Assembly: GCA_031423535.1 (NCBI GenBank)
Contig: JANPFS010000166.1
Span: 1 to 44,292 of the forward strand
Source of the DNA: Blastocatellia bacterium
Lineage (GTDB): Bacteria; Acidobacteriota; Blastocatellia; RBC074
Direction of reading: 5' to 3'
DNA: 44,292 nt
Part shown: positions 1,610-32,435 of the stretch, piece by piece
How positions within the stretch are numbered: the stretch's first letter is position 1
Layout: every line of letters starts with the position of its first letter
The notes under the pieces: model-generated
The model's database searches: none
Told to the model about the DNA's origin: nothing
Seen by the model: the letters and a program-made list of their open reading frames with translations, nothing else
Position numbers and translations under genes: made by a program

Positions 1610-1778
1610 TTCCCTTCCCTGGGCGCGTCGTGATGCTGCTGGTTGTGATTGTGTGATCCGCTTCCGGCTTGGGCGTCAGTAGCTGCTGAAACCACAAGCG
1701 CCCACCCGACACAAAATCATTTTTAGGCGATAAATTTTTCTATTCATTTTCCCGATTTCGTCAACCAACCATGAAATA

Positions 1779-1804
1779 CCTGCATGTAATATATTACATG
1801 CAGG
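1779..1804. promoter_or_regulatory. 26-bp perfect palindrome, operator candidate upstream of parA
   Basis: CCTGCATGTAATATATTACATGCAGG is its own reverse complement. It shares the core TGTAATATATTACA with the second site at 1878-1891. Confidence 0.6.
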
Positions 1805-1818
1805 CGTGCAATTGAGAT

Positions 1819-1847
1819 TTGCATTTATTGGAAAATTGGGATATTAA
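1819..1847 (+). promoter_or_regulatory. par operon promoter candidate
   Basis: TTGCAT at 1819-1824, 17-bp spacer, TATTAA at 1842-1847. Lies between the two palindromic sites and about 60 bp upstream of the parA ATG. Confidence 0.4.
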
Positions 1848-1877
1848 ATCGTATGCAATGAGTTTTGCATAAAACGC

Positions 1878-1891
1878 TGTAATATATTACA
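1878..1891. promoter_or_regulatory. 14-bp palindrome TGTAATATATTACA, second operator copy
   Basis: Perfect palindrome identical to the core of the 1779-1804 site, 19 bp upstream of the parA start. Confidence 0.55.
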
Positions 1892-1909
1892 TGGAAGGAC
1901 AAAACAAAG

Positions 1910-2827: not shown

Positions 2828-2829
2828 AT

Positions 2830-5594: not shown

Positions 5595-5783
5595 CGGTTG
5601 CCAAAGATTCTTCATCGAAACCTCATATTCACTTTTCCTGGAAATTTCGCAATGGTTTAATGTGAATCTATCGTTCCAACTGTTCCAACCCGGAGACTGA
5701 ATCGCAAGTTTGGAACCAATCTTGCTGTGCCAAATCCCTCACTACAAATCTGAAAATTTCAGTAACAAGGAAGGGAATCAAGT

Positions 5784-6020
5784 ATGAATAGAGCAGATGA
5801 TTGGATGACACCATCAGGCATCGCAGAGTTCTCCTATTGCGAAAAAGCCTGGGATTTGAAGCGATGTGGGCAAGCAGCGCCTGTCACGAAGGAAATGAAA
5901 CGCGGCATTCAGAAACACCAACAGAAGGCGATAGCAGTGGGAGCCTCTTCGATGCTGTTTGGGGCGGCAGCAATCGCCGGATTGATATTATTGGCGGTAT
6001 TTTTTCTGAGGTCACTATGA
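5784..6020 (+). CDS. Cas4-like nuclease, N-terminal piece (first cluster Cys plus a TM helix)
   Basis: SGIAEFSYCEKAW carries the N-terminal Cys expected for a Cas4/DUF83 4Fe-4S cluster. It ends in the hydrophobic stretch MLFGAAAIAGLILLAVFFL. The TGA stop at 6018-6020 overlaps the ATG at 6017-6019 of the next piece. Confidence 0.6.
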   Translation: MNRADDWMTPSGIAEFSYCEKAWDLKRCGQAAPVTKEMKRGIQKHQQKAIAVGASSMLFGAAAIAGLILLAVFFLRSL

Positions 6021-6508
6021 TCTGGCTATTTTGTCTTGTGATCCTGGCGCTCATCGTGGCTTTGTTGCTCCGCTGGAACTCCGGCGTTGGATTTTGGGTC
6101 ACTTATGCAGACCGAGGCCGCAATGAGGAACTATTCGTGTCCAGAGCGCACCGTCTACGCGGCAAGCCGGACTTTGTCGAACGTAGCAGCAGTGGGTTTG
6201 TGCCAGTTGAGTACAAATCCCATCGCGGAAAACTTCATCAAGCCTTTCGCAACCACGTCATTCAGGTTTTGGCCTACTGCTTTTTGCTCGAAGATGTTTA
6301 CGGCCCAGGCAAAGTGACCAAAGGACGTGTTGTTTATGATGAAGCTTCTTTCGATGTGCCATTTCGCGATAAAGAGCGCGTTGAAATTGCGCGCATTATG
6401 AGCCGAATGAGAATGATGGTGCGAGGACGCGCGAAACGAACGCATACCGAAGCAGGGAAGTGCCGGAGCTGCGCCTTCCAGAAACAATGTGACCAAAGTT
6501 TAGTATGA
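6017..6508 (+). CDS. Cas4-like PD-(D/E)XK nuclease core (RecB-fold, DUF83-type), C-terminal piece
   Basis: Starts with the TM helix MIWLFCLVILALIVALLL. Followed by LRGKPDFV (motif II Asp), VPVEYKS (ExK), IQVLAY (QxxxY) and C-terminal CRSCAFQKQC (CX2CX5C). The track ORF starts at 5801, but its upstream part overlaps the first piece in another frame. Confidence 0.75.
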   Translation: MIWLFCLVILALIVALLLRWNSGVGFWVTYADRGRNEELFVSRAHRLRGKPDFVERSSSGFVPVEYKSHRGKLHQAFRNHVIQVLAYCFLLEDVYGPGKVTKGRVVYDEASFDVPFRDKERVEIARIMSRMRMMVRGRAKRTHTEAGKCRSCAFQKQCDQSLV

Positions 6509-6728
6509 GGTTGGCTGAGAAATGAGCTGTGCGCCCTGGAAATGACCCGGTGATTGGATGTTTGGAGATGTTTGGAGGGAATTATGGTGGGTGACGCTAG
6601 GTTTTGGAACTGCCTGTGCAATTGGGGATGATCATTTGCAGATTTCGATGCAAGCGGTGTACCATGCTGAAGGCTTTTTGACAGGAACGGTTGGTGATTC
6701 CTGGCTGAAATCGCAAAATTACGACCAA

Positions 6729-6804
6729 TTGGTCGCCTATTTTGGGATGATTTTTGGATGGAAAATATGAGAGACAATCCAGGTCAAAAAAGAGCGATTT
6801 TAGC
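6729..6804. repeat. 76-bp direct repeat R1, copy 1
   Basis: TTGGTCGCCTATTTTGGGATGATTTTTGGATGGAAAATATGAG...AGGTCAAAAAAGAGCGATTTTAGC recurs at 7108-7183, an offset of 379 bp. The copies differ by one mismatch plus a 9-bp variable patch. Confidence 0.9.
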
Positions 6805-6816
6805 TAAAAATACCAG

Positions 6817-6941
6817 TGTTAGTTTTTTTTACAGTTACTGTGTAAGAAACTAACATGTTGTAAAAAAAGTTAACACATGTTGTTAGCTTTTTATACAGCA
6901 ATTGTATAAAAAGTTAACAATGTGTGTAATAAAAATTAACA
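6817..6941. repeat. six copies of a 15-17-bp motif TGTAwwAAAAnyTAACA in mixed orientation, about 22-bp phasing
   Basis: Copies lie at 6817-6833 (inverted), 6841-6855, 6859-6875, 6881-6897 (inverted), 6903-6919 and 6925-6941. Examples are TGTAAAAAAAGTTAACA, TGTATAAAAAGTTAACA and TGTAATAAAAATTAACA. The context is AT-rich and non-coding. Confidence 0.85.
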
Positions 6942-6978
6942 GTGATATTTGCCGAAAACCAGGGTAAAAAGCACACCC

Positions 6979-7107
6979 AAATCACACTCCACTCAGCAAC
7001 GAAAGCGCCTCGAACTCAGTAGGCGGCATATCGAAGATATATTCATAAATACCTTTGCCGGTTGGCGCGTCTTTGAGGAGGAAATCTTTGTTGATTCGCC
7101 CCGCGTA
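6979..7107 (-). pseudogene. duplicated 3-prime fragment (last ~42 codons) of gene 7362..7730
   Basis: 129 bp at 6979-7107 match 7359-7487 with one mismatch (7090 G vs 7470 A). The copy has no upstream coding continuation. Confidence 0.8.
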
Positions 7108-11454: not shown

Positions 11455-12306
11455 CTACTCCTTTTTTTGCCGGAATTTGCTGAACGTGGTCAACGTCTCC
11501 TTCGTTTCGTCGGCGAGGTTTTCCCACGCCTTATTCGTGTCATCAATTTCTTTGCCAAACATCCGGCCTTGGCTATGGGTGGCTTTGATGGCTTCAGTGC
11601 GTTTTTCAACCTTTTCTTGCTGCTCGCGAAACTCTTTGAGCGCGGCCTGTTGCTTGAGGCGCAGCGCTTCCTTCTGGGTTTCCAGTTGGGCAATTTGCAC
11701 GTCTCGGTCAGGACAGTCGTCGCAGTTCATCAATTCCTTGATGTTTTCTTCTCGACTTAGAATGGCCTGCTCAAATTCAGCCGTTTGCGAACTGAGTGCG
11801 ATGTTTTGCTCTTTCATCGTGATGATTTCTTTATCACCCCGAATAACCTGATCGGTCTTATACAATTCATTCTCAGCGGTGCGACCAATGGAGTGTTCCA
11901 GGTAGCGTTCAAACTCGGCCAAATCCTGCTCTGGATTCAAAATGCCGTTGAGTGCGCGGCGCTGAATCCCCATAAAGATGCGGCCTTGTGAAGTCAACAG
12001 GTTCTCAATTTGCCATTTGAGCCTGAACCCCATCCGAATGAGTTTTCCCCATTCGCTGATCTTGTACTGGGCGAGTAGCTTCTCGCTGGATTGCAAGATG
12101 GAACGCAAGTTGGTCACTTGCTGAATGTTTTTCTGAATCATTGTCTCGTATTGCTGAATGGCGGTAAGCCATTGCTGCAACTGGTTTAAGGCATTGATAT
12201 TTGCAACCGGGTCATAGACTGTCCATTGGGCTTGCACCGTCGCGGTTGGGAAGAGCAGCGCGCTCAGAAGAATTCCGATCAAAATTGGTTTGGTAATTTT
12301 CGTCAT
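11455..12306 (-). CDS. trbJ: TrbJ/VirB5-like T4SS protein
   Basis: Signal peptide MTKITKPILIGILLSALLFPTATVQAQ followed by WTVYDPVANINALNQLQQWL, a typical TrbJ N-terminus. The rest looks coiled-coil. Lies between the trbE-like and trbL-like genes. Confidence 0.65.
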   Translation of the reverse strand: MTKITKPILIGILLSALLFPTATVQAQWTVYDPVANINALNQLQQWLTAIQQYETMIQKNIQQVTNLRSILQSSEKLLAQYKISEWGKLIRMGFRLKWQIENLLTSQGRIFMGIQRRALNGILNPEQDLAEFERYLEHSIGRTAENELYKTDQVIRGDKEIITMKEQNIALSSQTAEFEQAILSREENIKELMNCDDCPDRDVQIAQLETQKEALRLKQQAALKEFREQQEKVEKRTEAIKATHSQGRMFGKEIDDTNKAWENLADETKETLTTFSKFRQKKE

Positions 12307-12327
12307 AATAATTTCCTTTCGGGGGGA

Positions 12328-15030
12328 TTAGGCTAATAGCGATTCGTCAATGTTGCTGCGACCAATGCTGGTTAAGCCGCGTGGGTATAACTGGGCAAGC
12401 CAACCAACGCAATCGGCTGTTGTCCATTCCGGGCGCAACGCCTGAACCCGCGTACGCGCATTGCGTTCATCCGGGTGACTCGTGCTGACCCATAATTCAA
12501 CCGGCGAAAGCTCGACCTGAATCATCTCCACTTTCTGACTGGCATCGGAGCCATAGACCGTCAGGAACTGGGCGTGTTGACCAGCTACATTATGAATGCC
12601 CCGGATAGCGGACTCCGTATTGGGCGAGAATCCACAGGCTATGGCCAGGTCTTCAATCCTGCTGCTCTGCTTGCCGATGATGCGAAAGCCTGCGTTGTCG
12701 CGGAAAGCGGGGATATCTTCAATGTTGGAGTAGGACTGTCCTTCAATGAGCGTCACTACGTTTTCTTTCCGTCCCGTCTGCGCGGACTTCACAAAGACCG
12801 GAATGATCTGCGGATATTCACGCCGGATTTCATTTAGCTCCAATGCCACGTTGAGCATCGGAGAAAAGGTTCCATCCGCATTGGGCTTGCCTACAGAACG
12901 CAGCACGCGCGCGATAATCGCTGATGCCAATGCGACCTTGATTGGGCCGGAGAACTCGTTCAGATTGCCAAGCTCGTAGACGTCAAAGGCGGTGTCTTTG
13001 ATAAAATCTGGATGTGTCGGCGCGTCTACGAAATATTTGTCGCGGTATTTCTCCAATGAATTGCGAACTTCTGCGGCGCGTTCTTTCAGGCGGCCTTCGT
13101 AGTTCCAACTGGAAAGCATGTCCAGCAACTTGCTCAAGGTCGGTTCCTTTTTCTCTGCCCGGTTGCGGTTGATGCTCTCAAATTCTTTGTACACTTCCTG
13201 CACCATCAACACGATGATGTCGTAGGCCGTGTTGTCGGTGAACGGAATGCCCGCGAGATTCATGTAGAAATCGCTGACAATCCCGATCTGCCCGTCATCC
13301 GGTGCGACCCCTTCGTAAAAGCCTGGATAAAACCAAATATTGAGGGTCTTATTCGTATTCGGGTCGAGCTTGATATGTCGCCCGCCTAAGACTTCGGTCA
13401 ATGGTTTCAGCCCTTCGCGGTAATCCACGGCTTTCACGCGTGCGTTCGGAATGCTGGCTAAGACATCCTGAATGATCTTGCCAATGAGCGTGGTCTTGCC
13501 ATTACCAGAGGCCGCGAGAAAGATGCCCAGTGGCGATGGCGTAATCGTTCGATCAAATAAATTCATCCCGTGCAGCCGATTGCTCGGTGTCGTGAAGATG
13601 CTGTGTGGTTTGTTCGCGCCCGGCCATTCCAATTCCTGGGGTACCAGCGCGGCTAAACTTCCTGCTGTTTCTTCAATTTCACGCCCCGTGGGCTGAGCGC
13701 TAAACTCGCCAATACAGGATTTGGGATATAGGCTACTGAGTGCGGCTGGTTCTTCGCGCTGGACTTCGGCTCCCTGAAATTGTCGGAAGGCGCTGATCAG
13801 GATTTCGGTGTTTTCTTCCAATGCTTTGAGGCTGGCGGTTAATTCATCGCGCGTGCGGCTCGGCGCACCGTAGATTACACAATAACTGCGCAGGGCGACC
13901 AGACACTCACGGCCCGTCGCAAGGTCTTCTTGCAGATCGTGCAACTCGCGGATCGCTAAATCCGCCGTCTTGTCGAGCTTGGTTTTGCCCGTTGCTGACG
14001 TTTTGGATCGTCCGGCCTGTCCGTACCGTTTGTTGAGTTTTGACTTGGCCTTCTTCTGATCCACTGAAACAAATTCGTGAACAAGCGTCCAGCGGCCAAA
14101 ATTGAGATTGCCGTTAAGGGTGAGCGAACGCATCGCCTTCTCGGTAATCTCCGGTTGCGGCGGTGCCAGCATGGAAATCACGACGGCGGGTGTGCTGCCG
14201 TGCATGACGTACCAGCCATTGGTCGTAATGCTCTCGGCACACAAATAGTCACGGACATCGTGACCGTCGCGCGGCACAGGCGGACAGGTCATAGCATCCT
14301 GTCGGGCCGAGAGGTAGAGGCCACCCCAGGTTTGATCTTTCGAGAGCGTTGTATAGGGCACGGGGCATTCCTGCTCAAACAGTCGGAATATCTTATTCGC
14401 TTCGGTAAAAGCTTGCTGCTCTTCCTCAATCAGCCGCGTGGTGAGATTGCTTCCGCCGCCGGTGAAGAGGTCTTTGATTTGGTCGGTCAGGCTCACGGAG
14501 GATCTGGTCTCCGGTGTCTTCACCCAGACAGTGATCAAGGGCAGGCGGAAACGTCCCGTGGCACATTCCCCTAACATGTAAGATGCCCCAAGCATGTGCA
14601 TTTGTAAGGCTTGTTGGTCTACCGGTGTATCTTCGATTGTGGTTAGGTGAGCTATGATCATCTCGCCGGGATCGGGTACGTTCGACATCCGAAATTGGAT
14701 GACTGTGCCGGCGGGGAGTTTTGCGCGAAACAACATCGCCCAACGACCAATCTGGTCAATTAAGGTCCCATCGTGTCCGAATTGTGTCGGGTTGGGATTG
14801 AGCCAATAGCCTTTCGTATAGCTCCCGTCTTTATTCCGAATTGCATCTTGATAAACCCCAATCGCCTGACAATCCCGGGTCGGAGGTTTGCGGCTGAAGG
14901 TGTTGCGGGGTTTGCGGATTTCTTTGGGTCCTTTGAGTTTGGCTAGAGGATAGAGCGTTTTGACAGCCCCTATTGCGACTCCAATTCCTGCACCAAGAGC
15001 TCCCACTGCTGCGAGTAGTGCTGCGTCCAT
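12328..15030 (-). CDS. trbE: VirB4/TrbE T4SS ATPase
   Basis: About 900 aa. Walker A in FLAASGNGKTTLIGKI. Synteny follows trbC-trbD-trbE. Start set at ATG 15030, where GGAGG sits inside the end of the trbD-like gene; the track start 15135 overlaps that gene. Confidence 0.85.
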   Translation of the reverse strand: MDAALLAAVGALGAGIGVAIGAVKTLYPLAKLKGPKEIRKPRNTFSRKPPTRDCQAIGVYQDAIRNKDGSYTKGYWLNPNPTQFGHDGTLIDQIGRWAMLFRAKLPAGTVIQFRMSNVPDPGEMIIAHLTTIEDTPVDQQALQMHMLGASYMLGECATGRFRLPLITVWVKTPETRSSVSLTDQIKDLFTGGGSNLTTRLIEEEQQAFTEANKIFRLFEQECPVPYTTLSKDQTWGGLYLSARQDAMTCPPVPRDGHDVRDYLCAESITTNGWYVMHGSTPAVVISMLAPPQPEITEKAMRSLTLNGNLNFGRWTLVHEFVSVDQKKAKSKLNKRYGQAGRSKTSATGKTKLDKTADLAIRELHDLQEDLATGRECLVALRSYCVIYGAPSRTRDELTASLKALEENTEILISAFRQFQGAEVQREEPAALSSLYPKSCIGEFSAQPTGREIEETAGSLAALVPQELEWPGANKPHSIFTTPSNRLHGMNLFDRTITPSPLGIFLAASGNGKTTLIGKIIQDVLASIPNARVKAVDYREGLKPLTEVLGGRHIKLDPNTNKTLNIWFYPGFYEGVAPDDGQIGIVSDFYMNLAGIPFTDNTAYDIIVLMVQEVYKEFESINRNRAEKKEPTLSKLLDMLSSWNYEGRLKERAAEVRNSLEKYRDKYFVDAPTHPDFIKDTAFDVYELGNLNEFSGPIKVALASAIIARVLRSVGKPNADGTFSPMLNVALELNEIRREYPQIIPVFVKSAQTGRKENVVTLIEGQSYSNIEDIPAFRDNAGFRIIGKQSSRIEDLAIACGFSPNTESAIRGIHNVAGQHAQFLTVYGSDASQKVEMIQVELSPVELWVSTSHPDERNARTRVQALRPEWTTADCVGWLAQLYPRGLTSIGRSNIDESLLA

Positions 15031-15032
15031 GG

Positions 15033-15356
15033 TTATTTGTCCTCCGAACGAATCCAGGCGGATTGATAGGTTTGATTGACGGGAGTTCCCTTTGTCTTGC
15101 TGCGACCGAACGATTCCAATTGGTGTTCCAGCCACCGATTGGGTTTACCGTCGCGAATGTACCGGAAGCTTGCGGCCAGGATGGCTAACATTACGATCCC
15201 GCTAATGAATGGCACGGGGATCGCGGTTTGAAAGTCCAGGAGCATCAGGATGAAAAACACGGCGACGGCGCCGATGATGGAGATGCCCCAGTCTTCATCG
15301 GTCAACCCAAGCCGAAGAAACGGCTTGAAAATTACGGAACGGATCGGATAGCGCAT
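15033..15356 (-). CDS. trbD: VirB3/TrbD-like small membrane protein
   Basis: 107 aa starting at the internal Met of track ORF 15033..15602: MRYPIRSVIFKPFLRLGLTDEDWGISIIGAVAVFFILMLL.... Two TM helices. Lies between the pilin gene and the VirB4-like gene. Confidence 0.6.
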   Translation of the reverse strand: MRYPIRSVIFKPFLRLGLTDEDWGISIIGAVAVFFILMLLDFQTAIPVPFISGIVMLAILAASFRYIRDGKPNRWLEHQLESFGRSKTKGTPVNQTYQSAWIRSEDK

Positions 15357-15427
15357 AAGCTGTTTCTCGAAAAAAGAGGGCGGCAGCCTTGCCACCGCCC
15401 GAGTCTGAGATGGGAAAAATGAACGAG

Positions 15428-15790
15428 TTAGAAACCGAGGGAGGCTTCTTTGCCCTGGGCAATGTTGAAGACAAAGTGGACGATGCCGGAAATGGCGAAC
15501 AGCACGAACGCGGCAATCAAGGGTTTGACCCAGGGTTGGTTGTTTAGGATATTGAAGCCCATCATGACGATGGCAACCACACCGCCCACACCGCACGCCC
15601 ATTTGAGCAGCTTAAAAACCTGGGTTACGCCATTTTGGAAGTTGGCACCTGCCGCGCCGTCGGAGAACACGCCATTGTCCGGCAGTTGCGCGTAGGCACA
15701 TGCCCCGAAGATGCCAAAAATGATGGCGTAGGAAAGTACCGTGCGAATAGTTCCGCTGTGCTTTTTCAGAAATGAAATTGAATTTTGCAT
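15428..15790 (-). CDS. trbC: VirB2/TrbC-type pilin precursor
   Basis: 120 aa with a signal-like N-terminus ending ACAYAQ and two hydrophobic helices. It is the first gene of the minus-strand T4SS operon. Confidence 0.6.
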   Translation of the reverse strand: MQNSISFLKKHSGTIRTVLSYAIIFGIFGACAYAQLPDNGVFSDGAAGANFQNGVTQVFKLLKWACGVGGVVAIVMMGFNILNNQPWVKPLIAAFVLFAISGIVHFVFNIAQGKEASLGF

Positions 15791-15971
15791 AAATGTCTGT
15801 GTCCTTTGTAAGTGGTGCGGGGACGTTGCATCACGAATCTCAAAGTGTCGCTTGGACGAGGATTAGCTAGTGCAAAACTCGTGCCGCTGCTGTGACAATG
15901 TTGCAAAGATGAAAAATAATTCCTCAAACGGGCGAGTTTAGCGTGTCTTGGAACAAGGGTTGCTTGGCAGG

Positions 15972-16751
15972 ATGGCTATGAATCGAAGCTGCATATTTGT
16001 CTTATTGGTTGGTTTGTTGATCGCCCCTGTACGGGCGCAGCAGGCGATCCAGGTAAGCTGGCGCGCCGTGCAACGCGGTACCGTTTATGAACCGCGCATG
16101 ATAGAGGAAGCGGCAAAGGCCAAGCTTGACCCGCGCTGGATTTGGATTGTGGGCTATCTCGAATCGAAATTTATACCGAGCGCGCGTTCCAACGCAAATG
16201 CTCATGGAATGATGCAGTTTATCCCGGCGACCGCTGCTCGCTTTGGCATCACCAATGTCTACGATCCCCATCAGTCAATCATCGGCGCGGCGAAGTATCT
16301 GGGATTCCTGAGCCGTCGCTATAACGGCAACGTCTATTCAGTTCTCGCTGGCTATAATGCTGGCGAAGGTGCTGTTGACGCATACCTGTCGGGCGAATCC
16401 AAAACATTGTCCAACGGGAAAGTCATCAATCCACGCAAAATTAAAACAGCGCACGGCGTGCCGCCTTATGCCGAAACGATGAATTATGTGAATGAGGGCG
16501 CACGCCTACTCTCCATGATGCCCGGACTCGAAGAGCGAGAGGCCGGCGCACCCGTCATTGCGATACAAGCAAATGGGCAGATACTGCCAGAGGAAATCAA
16601 AGCCGAAGTCGTGGAAATCCGCCCCTCCAGAGCGATACTCTTTGAGTATGAAGCGAGTACCGAACCGACTAAACCGTTGGCAGAGGAAGAAAAAGCCATT
16701 GCGGCAGGAGGGAATCCCCAGCCGAAAACGAAATCTGTCATTTTTCAATAA
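15972..16751 (+). CDS. lytic transglycosylase (SLT domain, VirB1-like)
   Basis: SLT motifs GYLESKF (catalytic Glu), AHGMMQFIPATA and LAGYNAGEGAV. Signal peptide MAMNRSCIFVLLVGLLIAPVRAQ. Start moved from the TTG at 15948 to the ATG at 15972. Confidence 0.85.
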   Translation: MAMNRSCIFVLLVGLLIAPVRAQQAIQVSWRAVQRGTVYEPRMIEEAAKAKLDPRWIWIVGYLESKFIPSARSNANAHGMMQFIPATAARFGITNVYDPHQSIIGAAKYLGFLSRRYNGNVYSVLAGYNAGEGAVDAYLSGESKTLSNGKVINPRKIKTAHGVPPYAETMNYVNEGARLLSMMPGLEEREAGAPVIAIQANGQILPEEIKAEVVEIRPSRAILFEYEASTEPTKPLAEEEKAIAAGGNPQPKTKSVIFQ

Positions 16752-22569: not shown

Positions 22570-24945
22570 ATGAAGGATTGGTTTGGCCGCCTGTTAGTAA
22601 GGAACTCCCTGATGAAAAACCTGTTTGAGATTATCAAGTTTGTCCTGTCCTTGTATCGGAAGTACAAGTCGCCGGTCACCGTTGCCAACCAACTCGATTC
22701 GGTCTATCCGATTCCACGCCCAACGGATACGCCTTTCCTGCCGCCCTATCACGCGATCCAGGCGCTCATCAGCATTGGCACCAGAATGTTTACCATTGGG
22801 GTGGCGAGTTGCTTGGGCGTGCTGGGTTGGTGTGGCGCGTTTTACTTTTTACGACTGGACTTTTTTGGTGTGGCAGGCGTGGTGCTGGTGTTTGTGTTGC
22901 TTGGCACCGTGTTGATTGCCTACGCCGAAGCCAAGCAATTGCCGCTGATTTACGAGCGCACACAACAACGCGTGTCACAAGGCACAGCCTTCTGGATGGA
23001 ACCAGAAATGATGGAGGATTCCGGCATCCTGTTTGATAGTGATGACGAGGGGTTGGACGCTGTGAATCATTTGGTGGCAAATTTCTTCCGTTTCTTTGGC
23101 GTGAAAATGGAACGGAAAGCCAAAGATAAGGTTCTGCCGCCGGATGAGGGATTTCTGGAAATTGGGCGGCACGGCTCGAAAACGATTGGCCTCCCCTGGA
23201 ATTTATGTTCCCGCCATTTGGTGTTGTTTGGGAAAACTGGCTCCGGCAAATCGAAGACGTATTTCCTCAATATGATTCGGCGCTGGGCGGGAAAGGGAAG
23301 TGTGATTGCGCTTGATCCCAAAGGCGAACTGATGTGGCAAACCGGCAGCTCGTTCAAGAAAGTCTTTCGGTTCAATCTGGTAGACCCGCTGGATAGCGAT
23401 CACTGGAACTTCATTCCCGATTGCCAGGATTCGGTAGTGGCTGCGGATGTCACTTCCATCATGTTACAGCTTGACCCGACGGCGAAAAAGGGTGGCGGGA
23501 TGGATCCATTCTGGGAAAACGCAGAAGCGCTCTGCTTGTGGTCGCTCCTGATGTTTCTCTCGACGCGCACCAATCCTGACGGTTCAGGGATGATCCCTGC
23601 CGATATTTCGCGCTTCATTTCTTCGCCGGATGACTTTGCCACTCCCGAACAGATCGAAGAAGCACGCCGAATCGCTGATACCTCACCCAGCAAAAGCTTC
23701 AATGTCTCGCTCATCAATATTCTGTTGTTGTTTGTGAGAAGTGGCTTGGGGAAGGAAATCAAGAACGCCTGGGGGATGTTCACGACCATCAAGCAGGAAG
23801 GCCACGCCAACGTGTTGCTGGGGTTGGGCGTCAAGGTGCGCAGCTTTACGGTTCCCACCGCGCGTGATTTAGCACAGCCCATTGGTAATAAAGACAATGC
23901 GCGCTGGATTACCTTCAAGGATTTGCGCCAACCGGGAACTGCCATCTTCCTCATCATCAACGAAGGCGATACCGGCACGTATCAAGCTTTGCTCGCTACC
24001 TTTATGGGAATGGCAACTCAGGCCTTGCGCAAGTCGGGTATGCGCGACGACGAAGCGAAAGTCCTCTGTTTGTTTGATGAAGCCGGCAACGTCCCGATCT
24101 GGGGCTTGGGTGAAATGCTCGGCCTCGGTCGTGGTCGTAAAATGGCGGTGGTGTGTTGCTACCAGACCGTCAATCAACTGTTCAAGCAGTACGGCAGTGA
24201 TGGTGGTAATGCCATCCTTGAATTGTTTACGAATTACATCTTTCTGCCCGGTGCGACCAATCAAACGGCGGAACTGGCCACAAAGCTCCTGGACAAGGTC
24301 ACCACTTGGTCACACACCGCTGTGGATGTGGTCGGTGGTTCCGGGGGTGACAATGAGCGCTCGTCTGAAATTGGGCGTGAGCTGATGACCACAGGAGAAG
24401 TTCGCCAACTGGTAGAATATCGGCAGGCCCTGGCAATTGTCGCAACCTTTCCTCCGATTAAGATGGCCTTCCCGAAATTTGCCTTTGATCCCAAGCGTCC
24501 GAAGTTTGAGATCAAAACTGAGCCGCGCGCCGCCCTGCCAGCTACATCCATAAGCATCGAAGAAGATGTCTATCCTGAACAAACGGAAGTTGCGTCGGAT
24601 GCTGTTGCGCAGTCAATTCTCCCACTCGCAAGTGTTCCAGTCGCGACTGTTCCACTCGCGACTGTTCCAGACGCGTCTGTTCCAGCCGTTGCTGTGTCTG
24701 TCGTAACCGAACCTCCTGCTCCGGTTGTTCCGGTGGTGGTTCCAATGGTACCCGCATCATCTTCTACACCGGTTGATTATTTTGACCAGCTTGGTGGAAA
24801 GGTTGCTGCTTCAGCAACAACCTTATCTAGTGACGATAGCTCTTCGGGGTCGCGGGATCGGCAACGCGGGCGTCTGATCAAAAAAACTCCCCAATATGAC
24901 AACATTGATCAGGAAATGATCGACCGGGACCCGACGTTGTTGTAA
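22570..24945 (+). CDS. traG: type IV coupling protein (VirD4/TraG family)
   Basis: N-terminal TM helices. Walker A in LVLFGKTGSGKSKTYFLN and Walker B in VLCLFDEAGNVP. The C-terminal Pro/Val-rich tail contains the CAGTCGCGACTG motif. Confidence 0.85.
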   Translation: MKDWFGRLLVRNSLMKNLFEIIKFVLSLYRKYKSPVTVANQLDSVYPIPRPTDTPFLPPYHAIQALISIGTRMFTIGVASCLGVLGWCGAFYFLRLDFFGVAGVVLVFVLLGTVLIAYAEAKQLPLIYERTQQRVSQGTAFWMEPEMMEDSGILFDSDDEGLDAVNHLVANFFRFFGVKMERKAKDKVLPPDEGFLEIGRHGSKTIGLPWNLCSRHLVLFGKTGSGKSKTYFLNMIRRWAGKGSVIALDPKGELMWQTGSSFKKVFRFNLVDPLDSDHWNFIPDCQDSVVAADVTSIMLQLDPTAKKGGGMDPFWENAEALCLWSLLMFLSTRTNPDGSGMIPADISRFISSPDDFATPEQIEEARRIADTSPSKSFNVSLINILLLFVRSGLGKEIKNAWGMFTTIKQEGHANVLLGLGVKVRSFTVPTARDLAQPIGNKDNARWITFKDLRQPGTAIFLIINEGDTGTYQALLATFMGMATQALRKSGMRDDEAKVLCLFDEAGNVPIWGLGEMLGLGRGRKMAVVCCYQTVNQLFKQYGSDGGNAILELFTNYIFLPGATNQTAELATKLLDKVTTWSHTAVDVVGGSGGDNERSSEIGRELMTTGEVRQLVEYRQALAIVATFPPIKMAFPKFAFDPKRPKFEIKTEPRAALPATSISIEEDVYPEQTEVASDAVAQSILPLASVPVATVPLATVPDASVPAVAVSVVTEPPAPVVPVVVPMVPASSSTPVDYFDQLGGKVAASATTLSSDDSSSGSRDRQRGRLIKKTPQYDNIDQEMIDRDPTLL

Positions 24946-25513: not shown

Positions 25514-25539
25514 GAAATTGAGAGCTTTAGTGTTAAGAG

Positions 25540-25567
25540 AAAGGCCACTCAATTGTAAGTGGCCTTT
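25540..25567. terminator. bidirectional terminator-like hairpin
   Basis: AAAGGCCACT (25540-25549) / AGTGGCCTTT (25558-25567) with an 8-nt loop. The flanks are T-rich on both strands. Confidence 0.6.
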
Positions 25568-25595
25568 CTCTTTGGGTGGGATGCCATAGGACGCA

Positions 25596-25652
25596 TTACC
25601 GATTATACATGTTGTCGTAATGACTTGCATGCACTGCTGCCGCTGCAATTTC
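25596..25652 (-). pseudogene. orphan C-terminal remnant homologous to the tail of the 1253-aa protein
   Basis: Encodes EIAAAAVHASHYDNMYNR-stop, against EIAAAVAQASHYDDMYDR-stop at the end of gene 28674..32435. Frame and stop position are the same. It has no upstream coding continuation, and track ORF 25596..25799 otherwise overlaps the methyltransferase gene. Confidence 0.65.
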
Positions 25653-25674
25653 AAGAACAGAACGGCAATGCCCG

Positions 25675-26892
25675 TTATGAAGCTGCCGAAATTGTAATCT
25701 CAAAAGGAATTTTCTCGCTGAATGGAATCGGCGAGTTTTGACCTGAATATCCCAAGTGGGATGCAATCGGTGATAAAGCGTGCTGTGAAATCCAGTCAAT
25801 CACAGGGACGCAGACGGCATCTGCAAATCCAGTCATGGCTTCATTCCGTGACCTGCGAATGCTGAAGTCTGGTACGCCTTGCAGACGGGCATATTCTACC
25901 GGCGACATCCATCGCATCTTTATATTTCCGCCGTCTATAATCACAACAATTTGTTTTCCGCTACCGCCTTTGGCTGTTCGTAAGCAGCCTGCCAGCCCGT
26001 CAAATCTTATTTCCGACCTGGTTTGCCCCTCACGAATTCGCCGAAAGATCGTCCCTACCCATAATTGTTTTGTGGCAAGCATTTTTTCAACTCGCTGATG
26101 GTGCAATTCACTCATCCTATCAAAATGCTTCTTAACTTCAGCCTCTGACCACCAATCTTGATTCGCGCCAAGGTCAATTACCGACTCTAAGTTTCTTTGT
26201 TCTGATAGTGGTTCTGGCAGGTTTAATGCTATCCATCCAGTAGGAAGTTTGATGGTGTGAAATGCCTCAAAAAGGCGAGGCGTACAGGTTTTTTTTCTCG
26301 CGTTAATACGCTCGCCCCATAGTTGTTGGCGACCTTCAAGAATCGCACTGGGGGGAATTCCTTCTTTCAAAATCCCCAGGATGAAGAGACGAGGACGGCT
26401 TTGGGGGGTGAAATATTTTGCGTCAACAATAAATGAGTCGAGAAAATAACCGAGCCTTGAAACGGCTAGACAGGTTTCTTCAAAGTCTTTACCCTTGTTT
26501 CCAGTTAATAACCCCGGGACATTTTCCAGTATCACTATGGGAGGCATTTTATTCTCCAGGTTTAGCCTTCTTAAAACCTCAAGAAAGCCGAACAAGGTAG
26601 AAGAATGTTCGCCCTTCAAGCCTCTCATATGGCCTGCAAGGGACAAGTCAGTACAAGGAAATGATGCTGTAGCCAGTAAGGCGCGTTGTTTGATACGCTC
26701 TAAAATCCTGTTCGTTTGCCAAATGTCTTCGAGATGAAAGTAGGTGGCATCGGAGAATTCATCCAGGTACATAGCCTGTTTTTTCTCTGAGATGTCATTG
26801 GCATAAAGACATGACCACTCAGACAAACGAAGCCCGTGATGAACCAATCCGATTCCGGCAAAAAACTCCAAAAATGTTTTCTCAGTACCCAT
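25675..26892 (-). CDS. DNA (cytosine-5) methyltransferase
   Basis: C5-MTase motifs are present: I FLEFFAGIGL, IV SFPCTDLSLAG, VI ILENVPGL, VIII TPQSRPRLFILG. The C-terminal motif is GFADAVCVPV. Sampled lines count about 38-45% GC, against about 63% in the adjacent iscB. Confidence 0.9.
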   Translation of the reverse strand: MGTEKTFLEFFAGIGLVHHGLRLSEWSCLYANDISEKKQAMYLDEFSDATYFHLEDIWQTNRILERIKQRALLATASFPCTDLSLAGHMRGLKGEHSSTLFGFLEVLRRLNLENKMPPIVILENVPGLLTGNKGKDFEETCLAVSRLGYFLDSFIVDAKYFTPQSRPRLFILGILKEGIPPSAILEGRQQLWGERINARKKTCTPRLFEAFHTIKLPTGWIALNLPEPLSEQRNLESVIDLGANQDWWSEAEVKKHFDRMSELHHQRVEKMLATKQLWVGTIFRRIREGQTRSEIRFDGLAGCLRTAKGGSGKQIVVIIDGGNIKMRWMSPVEYARLQGVPDFSIRRSRNEAMTGFADAVCVPVIDWISQHALSPIASHLGYSGQNSPIPFSEKIPFEITISAAS

Positions 26893-26997
26893 TCACGGCC
26901 TTCTTGAGTTTTAAGAACTGTTTATCAAAAACCGCAAAAGAAAACTCTCTTCTTCAGGGGAGAGATGAATTTTGCGCGCACCTCCGGTGCGAAATTA

Positions 26998-28317
26998 TTA
27001 GTTCAGTAAAGAGCGGATGCCTTTTGCGTAGCGATAGAGTTGTAATTGCTTGGCAGGCGCATGAATCTTGCCTGCCAGTAAAACGGTCTTGCCGTAACTG
27101 TGCGTCCCAACGACGACCTGCTTTTGCCCCTTGAAGATTACGACATCGCCCGGTTGAATGGGGTAGCGCTGTTTGCGACGAGAGATTACGCCTTTGCGTG
27201 TTTTGTGTCCCCTGTATTGGCGCAAGTCCTCGCTATTGAGGTTGTGATTGCGGGTGTGTCGTCCACTGGAAAGTTTCTGCCCCGTCGCCGATTTTCCGGT
27301 TCGCGTGTCGAGATACTTCGCGTCCCTGAAGGTGGCGAGCGAGCGGTTGTTCCGTCGTCGCTGTTGGTAGTAGATGGTTGGCACGCGTGGCTGTCCAGCT
27401 TTCCCCGTGATCGCAAATGCGTCGTTCGCCTCCGTTCTGGGTAAGCCCAGCGTGAGGCGGTTTCGTTTGGTCTGAAAGCCAAACACTTCGGTCGCACCGG
27501 TAGCTGTTACCAGTTTGCGGCGTATCGTGGTCATGAAAGTTTCGGCGCGGAAACTCTTGACCGTTGGCTCCCACCCGAACAAGCAGCCGCCCGGTTGATG
27601 ATTGGCCGGTCGGTGACAGTCGGTGCAAAGCGTGACGAGATTGCCGGGGCGGTCGCTTCTGTCCTGCTTCCAGAAGCCCAGATGGTGAACATGTAGGATG
27701 AGCGGCAGCTTTTTGTTCTTACAATCAGGGTTTTGGCACTGGCCGCGATCCCGAAACAAAACGTACTCGCGCAGGTTCTCAAACGAAAACTGTTCGCCTT
27801 GTTGATACCCGACTCCATTGACGTCGGGGGACTTGAGTTGCTGAATATCAAACGAAGCTGTCTGAATGTTCTTGTGGGTGATCGGCAGAATCTTCTCGAC
27901 CTGCCCAATGATCCGCAAATGCGAATCGTGCTTGTGTTGCAGCGAAGGAGCCAGTTGTTCCGCCCGTTTGCCCGTCTCGGAATGACCGGGTTGGCGATAG
28001 CGGGTCTTGTTGCCGCGTCGGGTGGTCCGGTACATCTGGCGTGAAGTGATGCGCTCGCTCACATCAGGATCAAGTGCGACCTCGGCAGAGAAGACTTCGG
28101 CTTGTTCGGTTTGGGCCGAAAGGCCGATGCTCGTATAGCCGCTCTTGACGTTGAGCGTGATAGGTTGCGTATAAGACGTGGCCTCATACGTGAGTTGGAT
28201 GGTGAAAGGTTTGGTTTGCAGAACGCGCGCGCGCCCGGCTCGTAATTGATGGCGCACCCAGCCATGCCGTGTGGTCGGCATGAGAGGCGAGCCATCCTGG
28301 TTCAGGACATAAATCAT
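26998..28317 (-). CDS. iscB: IscB (OMEGA-family RNA-guided HNH/RuvC protein) with substituted RuvC catalytic positions
   Basis: The expected IscB segments are all present. PLMP domain: MIYVLNQDGSPLMPTTRHGWVRHQLRAGRARVLQTKPFTIQLTY. Arg-rich bridge: RRGNKTRYRQP...LAPSLQHK. HNH block: CQNPDC...LHVHHL...GNLVTLCTDCH. RuvC-III-like: LGLPRTEANDAFAI. C-terminal tail: IQPGDVVIFKGQKQVVVGTHSYGKTVLLAG. Confidence 0.85.
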   Translation of the reverse strand: MIYVLNQDGSPLMPTTRHGWVRHQLRAGRARVLQTKPFTIQLTYEATSYTQPITLNVKSGYTSIGLSAQTEQAEVFSAEVALDPDVSERITSRQMYRTTRRGNKTRYRQPGHSETGKRAEQLAPSLQHKHDSHLRIIGQVEKILPITHKNIQTASFDIQQLKSPDVNGVGYQQGEQFSFENLREYVLFRDRGQCQNPDCKNKKLPLILHVHHLGFWKQDRSDRPGNLVTLCTDCHRPANHQPGGCLFGWEPTVKSFRAETFMTTIRRKLVTATGATEVFGFQTKRNRLTLGLPRTEANDAFAITGKAGQPRVPTIYYQQRRRNNRSLATFRDAKYLDTRTGKSATGQKLSSGRHTRNHNLNSEDLRQYRGHKTRKGVISRRKQRYPIQPGDVVIFKGQKQVVVGTHSYGKTVLLAGKIHAPAKQLQLYRYAKGIRSLLN

Positions 28318-28619
28318 AAAAATACCGAGAAGACGAATCTTCTAAAGCAGGTTGAGTTGTCTCAACCAGTGGGTCCACTTCGCCCGGTTCGTTCTGCTTG
28401 TGATTGCCGTAGCCACTTCGCCTACCCAAAGCGATGTTTAGGATACGACCGAGCCAACGTCGCTGGTGGAGCACGACGTTACTCGATGACAGGAAGAACG
28501 TTGTTGTGGTCATAGCGGCCGGTGAGGCCTGCCACAAAGGCTAATCAAGTGGGCTTGATCTATACCAAGCCTCGTCCTTTAGGACGGGGTTCTTGACTTT
28601 AGTTTCGTGAACCTTGCCA
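28318..28619 (-). ncRNA. omega-RNA-like structured leader upstream of iscB
   Basis: 302-nt non-coding gap directly 5-prime of iscB, where IscB omega RNAs are encoded. At least six local hairpins: 28328-28343, 28351-28366, 28456-28480, 28504-28537, 28544-28559 and 28570-28589. Ends are not mapped. Confidence 0.6.
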
Positions 28620-28730
28620 AAGAGAAAGGCCGCTCACTTGAGCGGCCTTTCTTCTTGGTGGGATGCGGTAAAACTACCGGTCATACATGTCATCGTAATG
28701 ACTCGCTTGCGCGACTGCTGCGGCAATCTC
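28620..28730. repeat. diverged direct repeat, copy B (terminator plus the true 3-prime end of the 1253-aa gene)
   Basis: See copy A. Homology starts exactly at the outer edge of the omega-RNA-like region. Confidence 0.75.
28625..28650 (-). terminator. intrinsic terminator of the 1253-aa gene
   Basis: 11-bp stem AAAGGCCGCTC / GAGCGGCCTTT with a 4-nt loop. On the minus strand it is followed by CTCTTTGG. Lies 24 nt after the stop codon. Confidence 0.7.
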
Positions 28731-31700
28731 CATCCGTTCCGGTTCAGCCGCTGGCTCCCGCTCTTCGGCTTTGCTCTCTCGTTCTTCCGTGACCCCGCGT
28801 TCCTCTTTGGAATCATCCGAGAAACGATCCTCCCGTAAGGCCGGCTGATTGGTCAGGTTGTGATCCGTCACTTCAGCAATCTGCGCCGGTCGTTCCGTCT
28901 CCACTCGCTCCGTCGAACGCTCCTGACTGTGATCGCGTTCGGTGGCCTGACCGATCAGCGTATCCAGCTTTTCAAACCCGCCATAAAACTTCTCGCGCCC
29001 GACCAGCTCGGAGTGCTGGTATGCCTGCAACATCTCGCGTTCTTGCGGTGTCGCCTGCTGAAGTGCCTGCGCTTGGAATTCCCGATTGTCGGTGAGTCCG
29101 CGACTCTCAGCGACGGCACTCGTCCGGGCGGTATCTGCATGAGTGAATGCCTCACGCAGATATTCCTTACTGCCTTCGGGGAGTGCCATCTGATCCAGTT
29201 TGCCATTGAACTCGCGGCTGTCCACTTTTCCCGCAATGTGATCCTGAATCATCGGCACGAGCGCGTCTTTGTTGGCCGTGATCGCTTCCTTGTAGCCAGG
29301 CTCCTGCATCCCGTTCTTCCAGGTATTTGTCCATTCGGTGCGGGTGGCAATCGCTCCATTCGCTTGCCCACGCTCTTCCGCAACCCGCTCGACAATCTCG
29401 CTTTTGTGTCGGTTGAGCGCGTCCCGCGCATTCATCGCATCCTGCTGATATTCCTTCATTGTGTCTACTTGTCGGAACACTTGCTGTGCTGCCGGGTCTT
29501 TCTCCGCCAAGTTGTCGCCGCGCGCTTCTGCTGTATCTCGGCGTTGATGAATGGTGTCAGGCACGGTGGTTGGCCAGGTTTCCCGCGAGATTTCTCTGGC
29601 CAGGAATTCCTTGCCTTGGGCGTTGTCGCGAACGGTCACTTTCCCGTCTTCGATGATGCGAACCTGGGCGACATAATCAGCTTTGGGATCGGCTTTCGCA
29701 TCTGTGACGGATTGTGCGTATGTCTGGTAACTCTGACTCTTGACGGGCACTGCGCCATACAACCGCTCACCGGACTCTCGTCGCATGTGCAGGTCTTCGG
29801 TGATTTCTTTGGCGACAGCCTTGACGTACAACTGTTCGTGGTATGTGAGCGCAGGCTTGCCGTCCGCCTTGCTTAATGACTCTTCCAGCCGGACTCCTAA
29901 CGTTTGGTGATCGCGCGATTCATCCAGCCTTGCGACCGCTTCGCGCGCGTTCGGTGAGGCTTTATGGGGCGCTGCCAGCAACGCCTCGGCTCGCATCACG
30001 TTCACTTCCTTGTAGATAAAATCCTTCTCCGCTGGATTGAGCTTGACCACGTTCTCGCGCACTTGCCATGCGACTTCTGTCGGACTCAAGGGTTTGTTGA
30101 GATCTGTGACTGGATTCATAATTACCGAAAAACGGCTCAGCTTTCCAGTATCCGGCTCTCCATTGCGATCCCGATTTTCGTCCAGTGCGCTCATGATTTT
30201 CTGGACAGGTTCAGACCGTTCTGTTTTCCCTTCGAGCAGATTGTTGACCATCTCTCGCTTCGTCGCATGGGTCATCAGACCGCTGTGCAGCGCCTGTGTC
30301 ATCTCGGGCGTAAATTCGTGTGTATGCGGCCCTGGCAGACTCACTAACGCCCGTTGCTCGGTACTGAGTTTCTGATGCGCAGATTCTTCGCCGTCTCGCT
30401 GTTTTGCTGCCAGCTTCGTGTTGAAATCCAGGATTATTTTTGCGCTTTCTGCGACCCCTTCTGGTGTTTTCTGTTCGGTCATTCGCTCCAGCGCACGATG
30501 GAAGACGGGCGATTGATTGCTGTTTCGCACGTATAAATCTTCCCGCAACACCGTACTCGCGAATTTCTCGGTGAATTGTGGCAAGGTTTGATATTCCGCC
30601 TTGATGTCTGCTCGATCTGCACCATTCGCCTGCGCGCGATCAATGGCCTGCAGGTGATCGCCGTATTTGTGCCCATTCTCTTTCGCCAGAAATGCCTCCA
30701 GTCCCGGATTGTCCTTGATCCTGAGCGCGCGCTCGGCACCGATCTGATTGTAGTCCTGCACATAGCCTTCCACCTGGGATTGTCCGGCGCGAGAGGTCTC
30801 CCATTGGGTGTTGGGAGCCAGCAACAATTCCTTGTCCCGCGTGCTAATTTGCGGATTCATCATCACTCGTTCGGCAAACGCGAACTCTCGCTCGGCCCCA
30901 ATCGCACTCGTACCCATCTTGACGCGATCTGCGTACATTTCCCGAAACTGAGTATGTTCTCCTGCCGGCGCTGTGACTCGTTCAGCAAATTCTGCGGCTC
31001 GCTCTAAGTAGGTTGAAGATGCTCGTGTGTTTAGGTTCGGGCTGTCTGCCATCGCTCGCAATTGTCCGCTATCCAATCCCGCCGCGCGCGCTTCTGTTGC
31101 TACATTGCGATACTCGGCTTCGCCCATCGCTTTCAGGTGGTCGGTGAAATCTACGCCGCTTTTGCTTGTGAGGTAGGCTGAATGCTCTAACAATGTGGCC
31201 GCGCTCTTTGGCGCTAACGATGACCCCGCAATTTCTTGTCCTAATCGTTCAGAATCTGCCGGTGAGAGTTGCCCTTGCGCATACTGGTCATAGCGCTCGG
31301 AGAACTGCTGCCCTTGCTCCGACGCTAAAATGTTTTTTACTTCCACCTGTTGATCCAGATACCGTCCCGCAAACTGCTGCACGTTTCTGGCTGCGGCTGT
31401 TAGTTCGGCGACCGACATCCCCGCTTGCAATGCCTCCGTCATCCGTGGCATCGCAGTTCCAACCAAATACTTGTCGGTCAGAATCTGGTCGTTCCCCGGC
31501 AAGCTGGGCTGCTGATCCAATCCCCCAATCCGAATCGAACTGGTATTGAAGATCGCCCCGTCGCGCGCCAAATCTAAATCCTGTTCTTCATACCGCTCGT
31601 CGGCCATCTCTAACATCGTGTTGTCAACGATTTCAAATTCATCCAGATTACTGCTCGCACGTTCGGTCTCATTGGTAAAGATTTCTCGTTCCTCGCCCTC

Positions 31701-32435
31701 CACGAGATCACGGTCTTCGGCATCAATCCGCTCAAATTCCCGATCCACTTCGCCCGTCGCTTCCAAAATGTACTCGCTACTTCCACTCGCCCCGCCGCGC
31801 TCCATGAGGTCATCCTTCGAGAAATCAACCTCGCGTAACTGCTCAGCAATCGCACTCATCTTGTCCAGCGCTTCCCGCGTGGCCGTCATTCGCTCAGGAT
31901 CAGTTCGGAAGCCACCATTCTCCGTAAAATTGATGTCCTTCAGATAACTATCTGCAATTTCCAAGCGCGCTGTCGTATCCGCATTGCGTCCAGCCAACGT
32001 TTCGATGTGCTCGTGAAATTCACGCGCCATCTCACGCGTGGGAAGATGCTCAATCAAATAGGCAAACGTTGTCTTCTGTGGCTCACTCTGATCCGGCGAC
32101 GTCCGACTGAATTCCTCCGTCGGAATTACTGCGACCTCTCGACTCGCCGTTGCGCCATGTTCATACATCTGCGCCAGCGTCGTGTGACCGTCCGACCGCA
32201 ATTTGCTCGACCATTCGGCCCGATCGTACCCTTCCGGTGGATTGAACACCGTGTTAAGGTCGTCGCGGTTCATCAACCGCTGCTCATCCGTTGTTCCCAC
32301 TGGCCGCGCGGCAATCTCCACCATTACCGCTTTCCCATACGGACTCTTGTTCTCGTCCAGCAATTGCTGCACGGATTTCTCGTCGTAGGCGTTGGGGTCG
32401 GGAAGGATTAAAAAAGGATTGAATTCTTTGGCCAT
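28674..32435 (-). CDS. large acidic, probably helical protein of unknown function (1253 aa)
   Basis: Uninterrupted 3.76-kb ORF. Rich in E, D, A, R and Q. No nucleotide-binding, relaxase (HxH) or nuclease motif recognised by eye. Confidence 0.7.
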   Translation of the reverse strand: MAKEFNPFLILPDPNAYDEKSVQQLLDENKSPYGKAVMVEIAARPVGTTDEQRLMNRDDLNTVFNPPEGYDRAEWSSKLRSDGHTTLAQMYEHGATASREVAVIPTEEFSRTSPDQSEPQKTTFAYLIEHLPTREMAREFHEHIETLAGRNADTTARLEIADSYLKDINFTENGGFRTDPERMTATREALDKMSAIAEQLREVDFSKDDLMERGGASGSSEYILEATGEVDREFERIDAEDRDLVEGEEREIFTNETERASSNLDEFEIVDNTMLEMADERYEEQDLDLARDGAIFNTSSIRIGGLDQQPSLPGNDQILTDKYLVGTAMPRMTEALQAGMSVAELTAAARNVQQFAGRYLDQQVEVKNILASEQGQQFSERYDQYAQGQLSPADSERLGQEIAGSSLAPKSAATLLEHSAYLTSKSGVDFTDHLKAMGEAEYRNVATEARAAGLDSGQLRAMADSPNLNTRASSTYLERAAEFAERVTAPAGEHTQFREMYADRVKMGTSAIGAEREFAFAERVMMNPQISTRDKELLLAPNTQWETSRAGQSQVEGYVQDYNQIGAERALRIKDNPGLEAFLAKENGHKYGDHLQAIDRAQANGADRADIKAEYQTLPQFTEKFASTVLREDLYVRNSNQSPVFHRALERMTEQKTPEGVAESAKIILDFNTKLAAKQRDGEESAHQKLSTEQRALVSLPGPHTHEFTPEMTQALHSGLMTHATKREMVNNLLEGKTERSEPVQKIMSALDENRDRNGEPDTGKLSRFSVIMNPVTDLNKPLSPTEVAWQVRENVVKLNPAEKDFIYKEVNVMRAEALLAAPHKASPNAREAVARLDESRDHQTLGVRLEESLSKADGKPALTYHEQLYVKAVAKEITEDLHMRRESGERLYGAVPVKSQSYQTYAQSVTDAKADPKADYVAQVRIIEDGKVTVRDNAQGKEFLAREISRETWPTTVPDTIHQRRDTAEARGDNLAEKDPAAQQVFRQVDTMKEYQQDAMNARDALNRHKSEIVERVAEERGQANGAIATRTEWTNTWKNGMQEPGYKEAITANKDALVPMIQDHIAGKVDSREFNGKLDQMALPEGSKEYLREAFTHADTARTSAVAESRGLTDNREFQAQALQQATPQEREMLQAYQHSELVGREKFYGGFEKLDTLIGQATERDHSQERSTERVETERPAQIAEVTDHNLTNQPALREDRFSDDSKEERGVTEERESKAEEREPAAEPERMEIAAAVAQASHYDDMYDR

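Follow-up and report, generated by a model that had tools for sequence, protein, structure and literature searches.

A RuvC-dead IscB and a solitary C5 methyltransferase, probably chance neighbours in the cargo of a Blastocatellia conjugative element

Among the gene families enriched in the leading regions of plasmids, orphan methyltransferases are some of the most prominent, and protection against restriction-modification (R-M) has been proposed for them (PMC11541004). IscB proteins of IS200/IS605 elements (IscB/OMEGA; OgeuIscB, PDB 7utn/7xht) carry a PLMP/RRXRR domain, an HNH domain and a C-terminal region, and their omega RNA (HEARO, RF02033), with a guide taken from flanking DNA, lies directly upstream of iscB. 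TldR proteins are nuclease-dead repressors derived from TnpB (bioRxiv 10.1101/2023.11.30.569447). In the literature, we found neither a described RuvC-dead IscB nor a published partnership between an IscB and a methylase. Here, we describe a locus in which genes of both kinds lie next to each other.

The window analysed, 44,292 nt long, is the entire 44.3-kb contig C166 of a Blastocatellia MAG (7.3 Mb, 1451 contigs, 91.8% complete, 54.2% GC). The contig is a conjugative element, as judged from the T4SS, the coupling protein and the ParA/ParB genes that it carries; its other matches include an SLT transglycosylase, a TraM-like protein, DUF4141, an AAA ATPase and a DUF3854 protein. Neither a relaxase nor an oriT was identified on it. 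A first reading of the letters alone (hereafter the sequence-only reading) had placed iscB and a C5 methyltransferase gene on the same strand, 105 bp apart, which is exact. Read along the minus strand, the order is a gene for a 1253-aa protein, a strong terminator, the omega-RNA scaffold, iscB, the 105-bp gap and the methylase gene. The features are the following.

28674–32435, minus strand: gene for a 1253-aa protein with no family match (stop codon 28674–28676)
28617–28730, minus strand: direct repeat, copy 1, made of the 3'-terminal 18 codons of the 1253-aa gene and a bidirectional intrinsic terminator hairpin (28617–28658)
28598–28613, minus strand: predicted omega-RNA guide, 16 nt, GGTTCACGAAACTAAA, directly 5' of the scaffold
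28369–28597, minus strand: omega-RNA scaffold (Rfam HEARO, RF02033; 88.6 bits, gathering score 83; model covered in full, 1–211)
26998–28317, minus strand: iscB, 439 aa (PF14239 RRXRR, 168.7 bits; PF01844 HNH, 24.9 bits)
26893–26997, minus strand: intergenic gap, 105 bp, 42.9% GC
about 26977–26992: gap hairpin with a 6-bp stem (−8.5 kcal/mol)
about 26933–26976: gap hairpin with a 5-bp stem and a 10-nt loop within an A/U outer stem (−12.9 kcal/mol, z −1.1), followed by a run of five U
25675–26892, minus strand: C5 cytosine DNA methyltransferase, 405 aa (PF00145, 128.5 bits over residues 6–369)
25661–25676, minus strand: hairpin of 5 bp that overlaps the stop codon of the methylase gene; right edge of the insert
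25535–25652, minus strand: direct repeat, copy 2, made of the relic of the end of a homologue of the 1253-aa gene and a terminator hairpin (25535–25575)
22570–24945: VirD4/TraG-type coupling protein (T4CP)

The iscB product is a member of the IscB family (NF040563, guided_IscB: 262.9 bits for a cut-off of 175), and its PLMP/RRXRR domain is intact. Its RuvC residues were read against OgeuIscB (PDB 7utn) and 12 homologues. Three of the four catalytic residues are replaced: D by K at RuvC I (GIDPG/GIDSG to NVKSG), E by Q at RuvC II (IEVA to IQTA) and H by E at RuvC III (SHxND to TEAND, the last D being kept). The HNH domain is intact, including its catalytic His/Asn/His and its zinc cysteines, with the CxxC...HVHH...N...CxxCH pattern conserved in the alignment. 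The suspicion that this IscB is RuvC-dead was therefore correct and, given the loss of this active site and the retention of HNH, the most that can be expected of the protein is nicking or binding of DNA. Identical RuvC substitutions were found in a truncated second copy of iscB in the host genome (contig C126) and in a metagenomic homologue sharing 82% identity; in a homologue sharing 68% identity, the only change at the RuvC positions is D to N. Over the 176 codons shared by the window gene and the C126 copy, dN/dS was 0.15, which indicates that the RuvC-dead protein is maintained by purifying selection.

The window is homologous to the C126 copy starting exactly at position 28598, which is the left end of the IscB unit; upstream of it the sequences differ, and the two guides differ as well. 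Such a different guide fits an IS-borne IscB whose guide is the flanking DNA. The right end of the unit is undefined, because the sole other genomic copy is truncated before its 3' end. The guide length of 16 nt was taken by analogy with known IscB systems. Further matches to this guide with up to three mismatches were absent from the window, and those with two mismatches in the host genome were no commoner than for a control pattern. Methylase protection of the guide target as carried by the element itself, which had been proposed, is thus left without a second guide match, in window or genome, beyond chance.

The clade to which this IscB belongs comprises four known sequences, and none occurs in the 86 further genomes of the order. 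Beyond the clade, the relatives belong to Bacillota and Chloroflexota and share about 50% identity. Scans of genome and metagenome contigs returned only IscB relatives with no more than 53% identity across most of the protein, as well as one fragment of 84 residues at 62%, and matches in the plasmid database were all below 50%.

The methylase gene encodes a protein that scores 115.5 bits with TIGR00675 (cut-off 100.65) and in which the FxGxG (FAGIG), PC (FPC), ENV, QxRxR (QSRPR) and C-terminal motifs can be recognised by eye. Its closest full-length relatives are acidobacterial (60–72% identity), and its matches in the plasmid database are all at about 40% identity or below. Wherever the context of an orthologue (60–75% identity) was readable, the gene was found in one and the same arrangement: M divergent from a C gene (HTH_3), accompanied by a protein of about 260 aa and, mostly, by Vsr. 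Five genomes of the taxonomic family of the host contain this cassette, including one of the same genus, and it is also present on the metagenomic contigs of four relatives; GCA_016196035.1, labelled 'Acidobacteria bacterium', is a member of that family. A frameshifted relative sharing 75% identity, on a low-coverage contig, has a divergent gene of about 280 aa and no IscB.

The protein of about 260 aa has a conserved PD...ExK motif and no family in Pfam, NCBIfam or PADLOC. It is probably the restriction enzyme (R) of the related cassettes. An AlphaFold2 model built from an alignment of eight sequences had a mean pLDDT of 38.8, too low for a fold search or for inferring the specificity of the enzyme.

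None of the cassette proteins C, R and Vsr had a tblastn match in the window, and R had none in the 91.8%-complete MAG, in agreement with the sequence-only reading, which had seen no cognate restriction endonuclease. The two Vsr genes of the host genome are both on other contigs. A type II R-M system would have a cognate R, here together with C and Vsr, beside the methylase, and none of these is there. Since its orthologues lie in cassettes and C, R and Vsr are missing here, the methylase is a type II R-M cassette gene that has become solitary. Between its target-recognition part and those of the cassette-linked orthologues, identity is 61–66%, which suggests that it likely recognises the cassettes' site or a similar one. 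We also looked for its specificity among sequences of the PDB; the best match, M.HhaI (1.8e-13), covers the N-terminal half alone and predicts no site.

Base composition had been sampled by hand on three 60-nt lines, and the values obtained there hold on recounting (45.0% and 38.3% GC in the methylase gene, 63.3% in iscB). Over the entire genes, GC is 45.5% and GC3 43.6% for the methylase, versus 55.7% and 65.2% for iscB; GC3 of the neighbouring element genes ranges from 52 to 64%, and GC of the window is 51.1%. Compared with these neighbours and with the host, the methylase is a compositional outlier, whereas iscB is not. The foreign-looking segment consists of the methylase gene and the 105-bp gap, iscB resembling its surroundings (GC3 close to the element genes, GC close to the 54.2% of the host). 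The drop in GC3, from 65% to 44%, falls exactly at the iscB stop, and indicates that the two genes had separate earlier histories. Different origins, as first proposed from the sampled lines, are thus borne out by composition as well as by the relatives of each gene, acidobacterial R-M cassettes on one side and IscBs of Bacillota and Chloroflexota on the other.

The pair lies within a repeat-bracketed interval, as had been noticed, and this interval is real: the direct repeats, of about 115 bp, are 76–79% identical. In copy 2, which starts 22 nt past the methylase stop, the last 18 codons (about 25596–25652) are an orphan relic that has kept its frame and stop codon. Both copies include a strong terminator hairpin, nearly identical in the two, with a folding energy of −30.7 kcal/mol (z −6.5) in copy 1 and −27.6 kcal/mol (z −9.8) in copy 2, and the latter also terminates the convergent T4CP–orf175 operon. 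One strong terminator is therefore present on each side of the block of about 3.1 kb formed by omega RNA, iscB and methylase, and no strong one separates the two genes. The hairpins reported in the gap do exist and are both weak by their folding energies, and folding of the entire gap was no better than that of shuffled sequence (z −0.68). The gap gave no match to a sigma-70-like promoter, and contains a Shine-Dalgarno-like AAGAAGG 6 nt 5' of the methylase ATG. Since strong terminators are found only outside the pair, a shared transcript is possible, and the layout makes it plausible that iscB and the methylase form a single transcription unit.

Comparison of the gap with the intergenic control regions between M and C of the orthologous cassettes gave no significant similarity. 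In a MAFFT alignment, a stretch of about 30 nt preceding the methylase start codon resembled a conserved, C-box-like element of these cassettes. This similarity was at chance level in a local-alignment test against 500 shuffles, and the claim that a native promoter had come along with the gene was dropped accordingly.

The two genes are most probably an orphan methylase of the anti-restriction type and an IS-derived, RuvC-dead IscB that became neighbours by chance in a cargo spot of the conjugative element, and among the explanations put forward by the sequence-only reading, chance adjacency is the one that the evidence favours. The cargo insert, of about 3.08 kb, would hold two unrelated passengers. 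The first would be an IS-derived omega RNA/IscB unit that lost its RuvC site and retained HNH. The second would be a solitary C5 methylase originating from a type II R-M cassette, controlled by a C protein, that circulates in the host's family. The methylase most likely acts alone, and would modify the DNA of the element and of its host at the cassettes' cleavage site; relatives with the cognate enzyme would thereby become accessible to the element, for entry or for persistence (the putative 'anti-restriction' role of an orphan). This interpretation agrees with the enrichment of orphan methylases reported for leading regions (PMC11541004), a placement in such a region being putative for the window gene. 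Adjacency to iscB would be a by-product of the accumulation of DNA between the 1253-aa gene and a shared bidirectional terminator.

The presence in copy 2 of a relic gene end together with a terminator suggests that the block probably arose by a recombination or a Campbell-type route. Recombination with a diverged sister element may have occurred, with a left homologous crossover inside the 1253-aa gene and, on the right side, an illegitimate join at about 25653–25675. Alternatively, a circle bearing the 115-bp homology may have integrated in the Campbell manner. Either route would bring in the block as a single piece, and joint arrival of the two genes is possible since both are inside a single repeat-bracketed insert. 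In a search for the empty site, two genomes of the same genus were found to have a homologue of this gene (59% identity) followed by unrelated DNA, so that the empty site cannot be reconstructed from them.

Enclosure of both genes in one insert also agrees with an alternative that we consider unlikely, namely that the methylase is cargo of the IscB insertion sequence, omega RNA, iscB and methylase moving as a single element of about 3 kb. The methylase would then help the recipient replicon without cooperating biochemically with IscB. On the left, IscB homology ends (28598) directly beside repeat copy 1, a small hairpin is found at the right edge directly past the methylase stop, and a Y1 transposase could act in trans: PF01797 has no match on this contig and 10 on other contigs of the host. 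Against such a single element stands the GC3 step located exactly at the iscB stop. The copy on C126 leaves the right end undefined, and the relative sharing 68% identity carries a different gene, for a sigma-54 activator, 27 bp past iscB. IS200/IS605 elements make no target duplication, so that the diverged 115-bp repeat would remain unexplained.

True coupling, in which an omega-RNA-guided, HNH-only IscB (a nickase or a binder) and the methylase act jointly, appears very unlikely. Methylation would, for example, mark self, so that nicking is confined to incoming or rival DNA lacking the methylation, or would shield the site of the element that matches the guide. The orientation of the two genes, their spacing of 105 bp and the strong terminators just outside the pair are all compatible with it, and purifying selection on the RuvC-dead IscB (the dN/dS value given above) points to some role besides double-strand cutting. 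Overlap of the methylase's recognition site with an IscB target or TAM is possible. However, no co-occurrence was seen in any related IscB or methylase locus examined, and the functional coupling that had been proposed is unsupported. Neither of the two IscB relatives with readable neighbours (the 68% homologue and the truncated C126 copy) has a methylase nearby, and in the 82% relative, which is outside these two, iscB is followed by an overlapping ORF; in a clade of only four sequences, this missing co-occurrence has low power. The 82% relative lies on a 2,225-bp contig (ENA ERZ27315198), and among 117 short PF00145 matches none was a fragment from an ENA contig of that length. The flanks of 19 more distant IscB loci gave no methylase match. 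Conversely, no RRXRR/IscB gene stands beside the methylase orthologues in about 10 independent contexts, this family being otherwise always linked to its own restriction enzyme. The different compositional origins of the two genes, a guide with no second target in window or genome and a literature silent on such a partnership also argue against coupling, and co-transcription by itself would not prove cooperation. A specific form of it, in which the terminator-bounded omega RNA, HNH-only IscB and methylase constitute a two-component module and cytosine methylation sets which DNA is open to IscB, is highly improbable; if true, it would represent self/non-self marking for an OMEGA effector.

Finally, joining of the low-GC methylase segment by metagenomic mis-assembly is barely credible: the host MAG is fragmented (1451 contigs) and the methylase is a compositional outlier of 1.3 kb, but it is flanked by element-specific sequence, namely iscB at one end and, at the other, the diverged gene-end relic together with the terminator of the T4CP operon, and a chimera would require two precise breakpoints.

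As such, the pair is of little importance: conjugative elements pick up stray methylases from the R-M systems of their hosts, and adjacency, even within an apparent single transcription unit, is weak evidence of cooperation. The interesting part is the small IscB clade, in which RuvC is lost and HNH and the omega RNA are kept under purifying selection, and which is a candidate for an RNA-guided nickase or binder of natural origin. The PD...ExK family of the related cassettes, so far unannotated, is a second by-product of the analysis.

With respect to known systems, the window methylase is like the orphan methyltransferases of conjugative plasmids and phages (PMC11541004) in being an intact C5 enzyme without cognate endonuclease on a conjugative element, and in originating from an R-M system of bacteria that are potential hosts. 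Its place in a leading region, as described for these proposed anti-restriction genes, would be putative, as would the protection that it may confer. It resembles the M of acidobacterial, C-protein type II R-M cassettes with Vsr (60–75% identity overall, 61–66% in the target-recognition part), and differs from them by the lack of C, R and Vsr in the window and by an upstream control region that is not recognisably kept. The IscB unit shares with IS200/IS605 IscB/OMEGA the PLMP/RRXRR, HNH and C-terminal regions, as well as a full HEARO RNA directly upstream of iscB with a guide from flanking DNA; in contrast to these systems, it has three of the four RuvC residues replaced, no adjacent tnpA and a location in a conjugative element. 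Like TldR, it is transposon-derived, RNA-guided, inactivated at RuvC and under selection. Unlike TldR, it belongs to the IscB and not to the TnpB lineage, no fixed genomic target was found for its guide, and its HNH domain is intact, so that nicking is possible.

In the orthologous cassettes, which are R-M loci of relatives of the window C5 methylase, a protein family of about 260 aa was found that carries a conserved YPDLYF...GIEIKSQ (PD..ExK) motif, and this family is probably their restriction enzyme. Its members lie at the following loci:

L011, 6887-7678: ~260-aa PD..ExK protein
L045, L046, L047, L048, L066, L067 and L069: ~260-aa PD..ExK proteins

The family had no match in Pfam, NCBIfam or PADLOC, and an AlphaFold2 model based on 8 sequences reached a pLDDT of only 38.8. 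In these cassettes M and C diverge from each other, and alignment of the DNA that separates them (L044-L048) revealed a conserved stretch of about 28 nt with the consensus GACTATATGTCCACGGGATATAACTACC. This stretch is probably the C-box/operator; it was not recognisable in the window. A 75% relative of the window methylase is borne by a low-coverage contig, L070, where an intein carrying a LAGLIDADG domain splits gyrB (11787-16557).

The window contig has an overall GC content of 51.1%, the 5th percentile among the contigs of its MAG. Two more low-GC stretches (41-45% in 1.2-kb windows) were observed at 1100-3400, which spans the ParA/ParB genes, and at 5700-7100. Four 15-bp units resembling CCACTCGCGACTGTT, with the palindrome CAGTCGCGACTG, lie in tandem at 24622-24696, in the 3'-terminal part of the gene for the coupling protein.

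The host MAG contains another iscB copy and an iscB-like gene. The one on contig C126 is broken off past codon ~177-184, where unrelated sequence with a GC-rich hairpin is found at the contig start (L002, 1-150); this may correspond to a further insertion or to a contig break. A third IscB-like gene, only distantly related (33% identity), is located at G000:C1164:10931-12137 (L003/L021). It contains one in-frame TAG, and upstream of it lies a sub-threshold HEARO match of 63 bits.

The window copy (26998-28317), the C126 copy (L002, G000:C126:125-953) and the homologues P0003 (82%, metagenomic) and P0004 (68%) form a small IscB clade that is RuvC-dead and HNH-intact. Loss of RuvC looks stepwise from these sequences; D->N is the sole RuvC change in P0004. 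Comparison of the window and C126 copies gave a dN/dS of 0.15. The RuvC-dead, HNH-intact IscB of this clade is a candidate for a naturally occurring nickase or binder guided by omega RNA.
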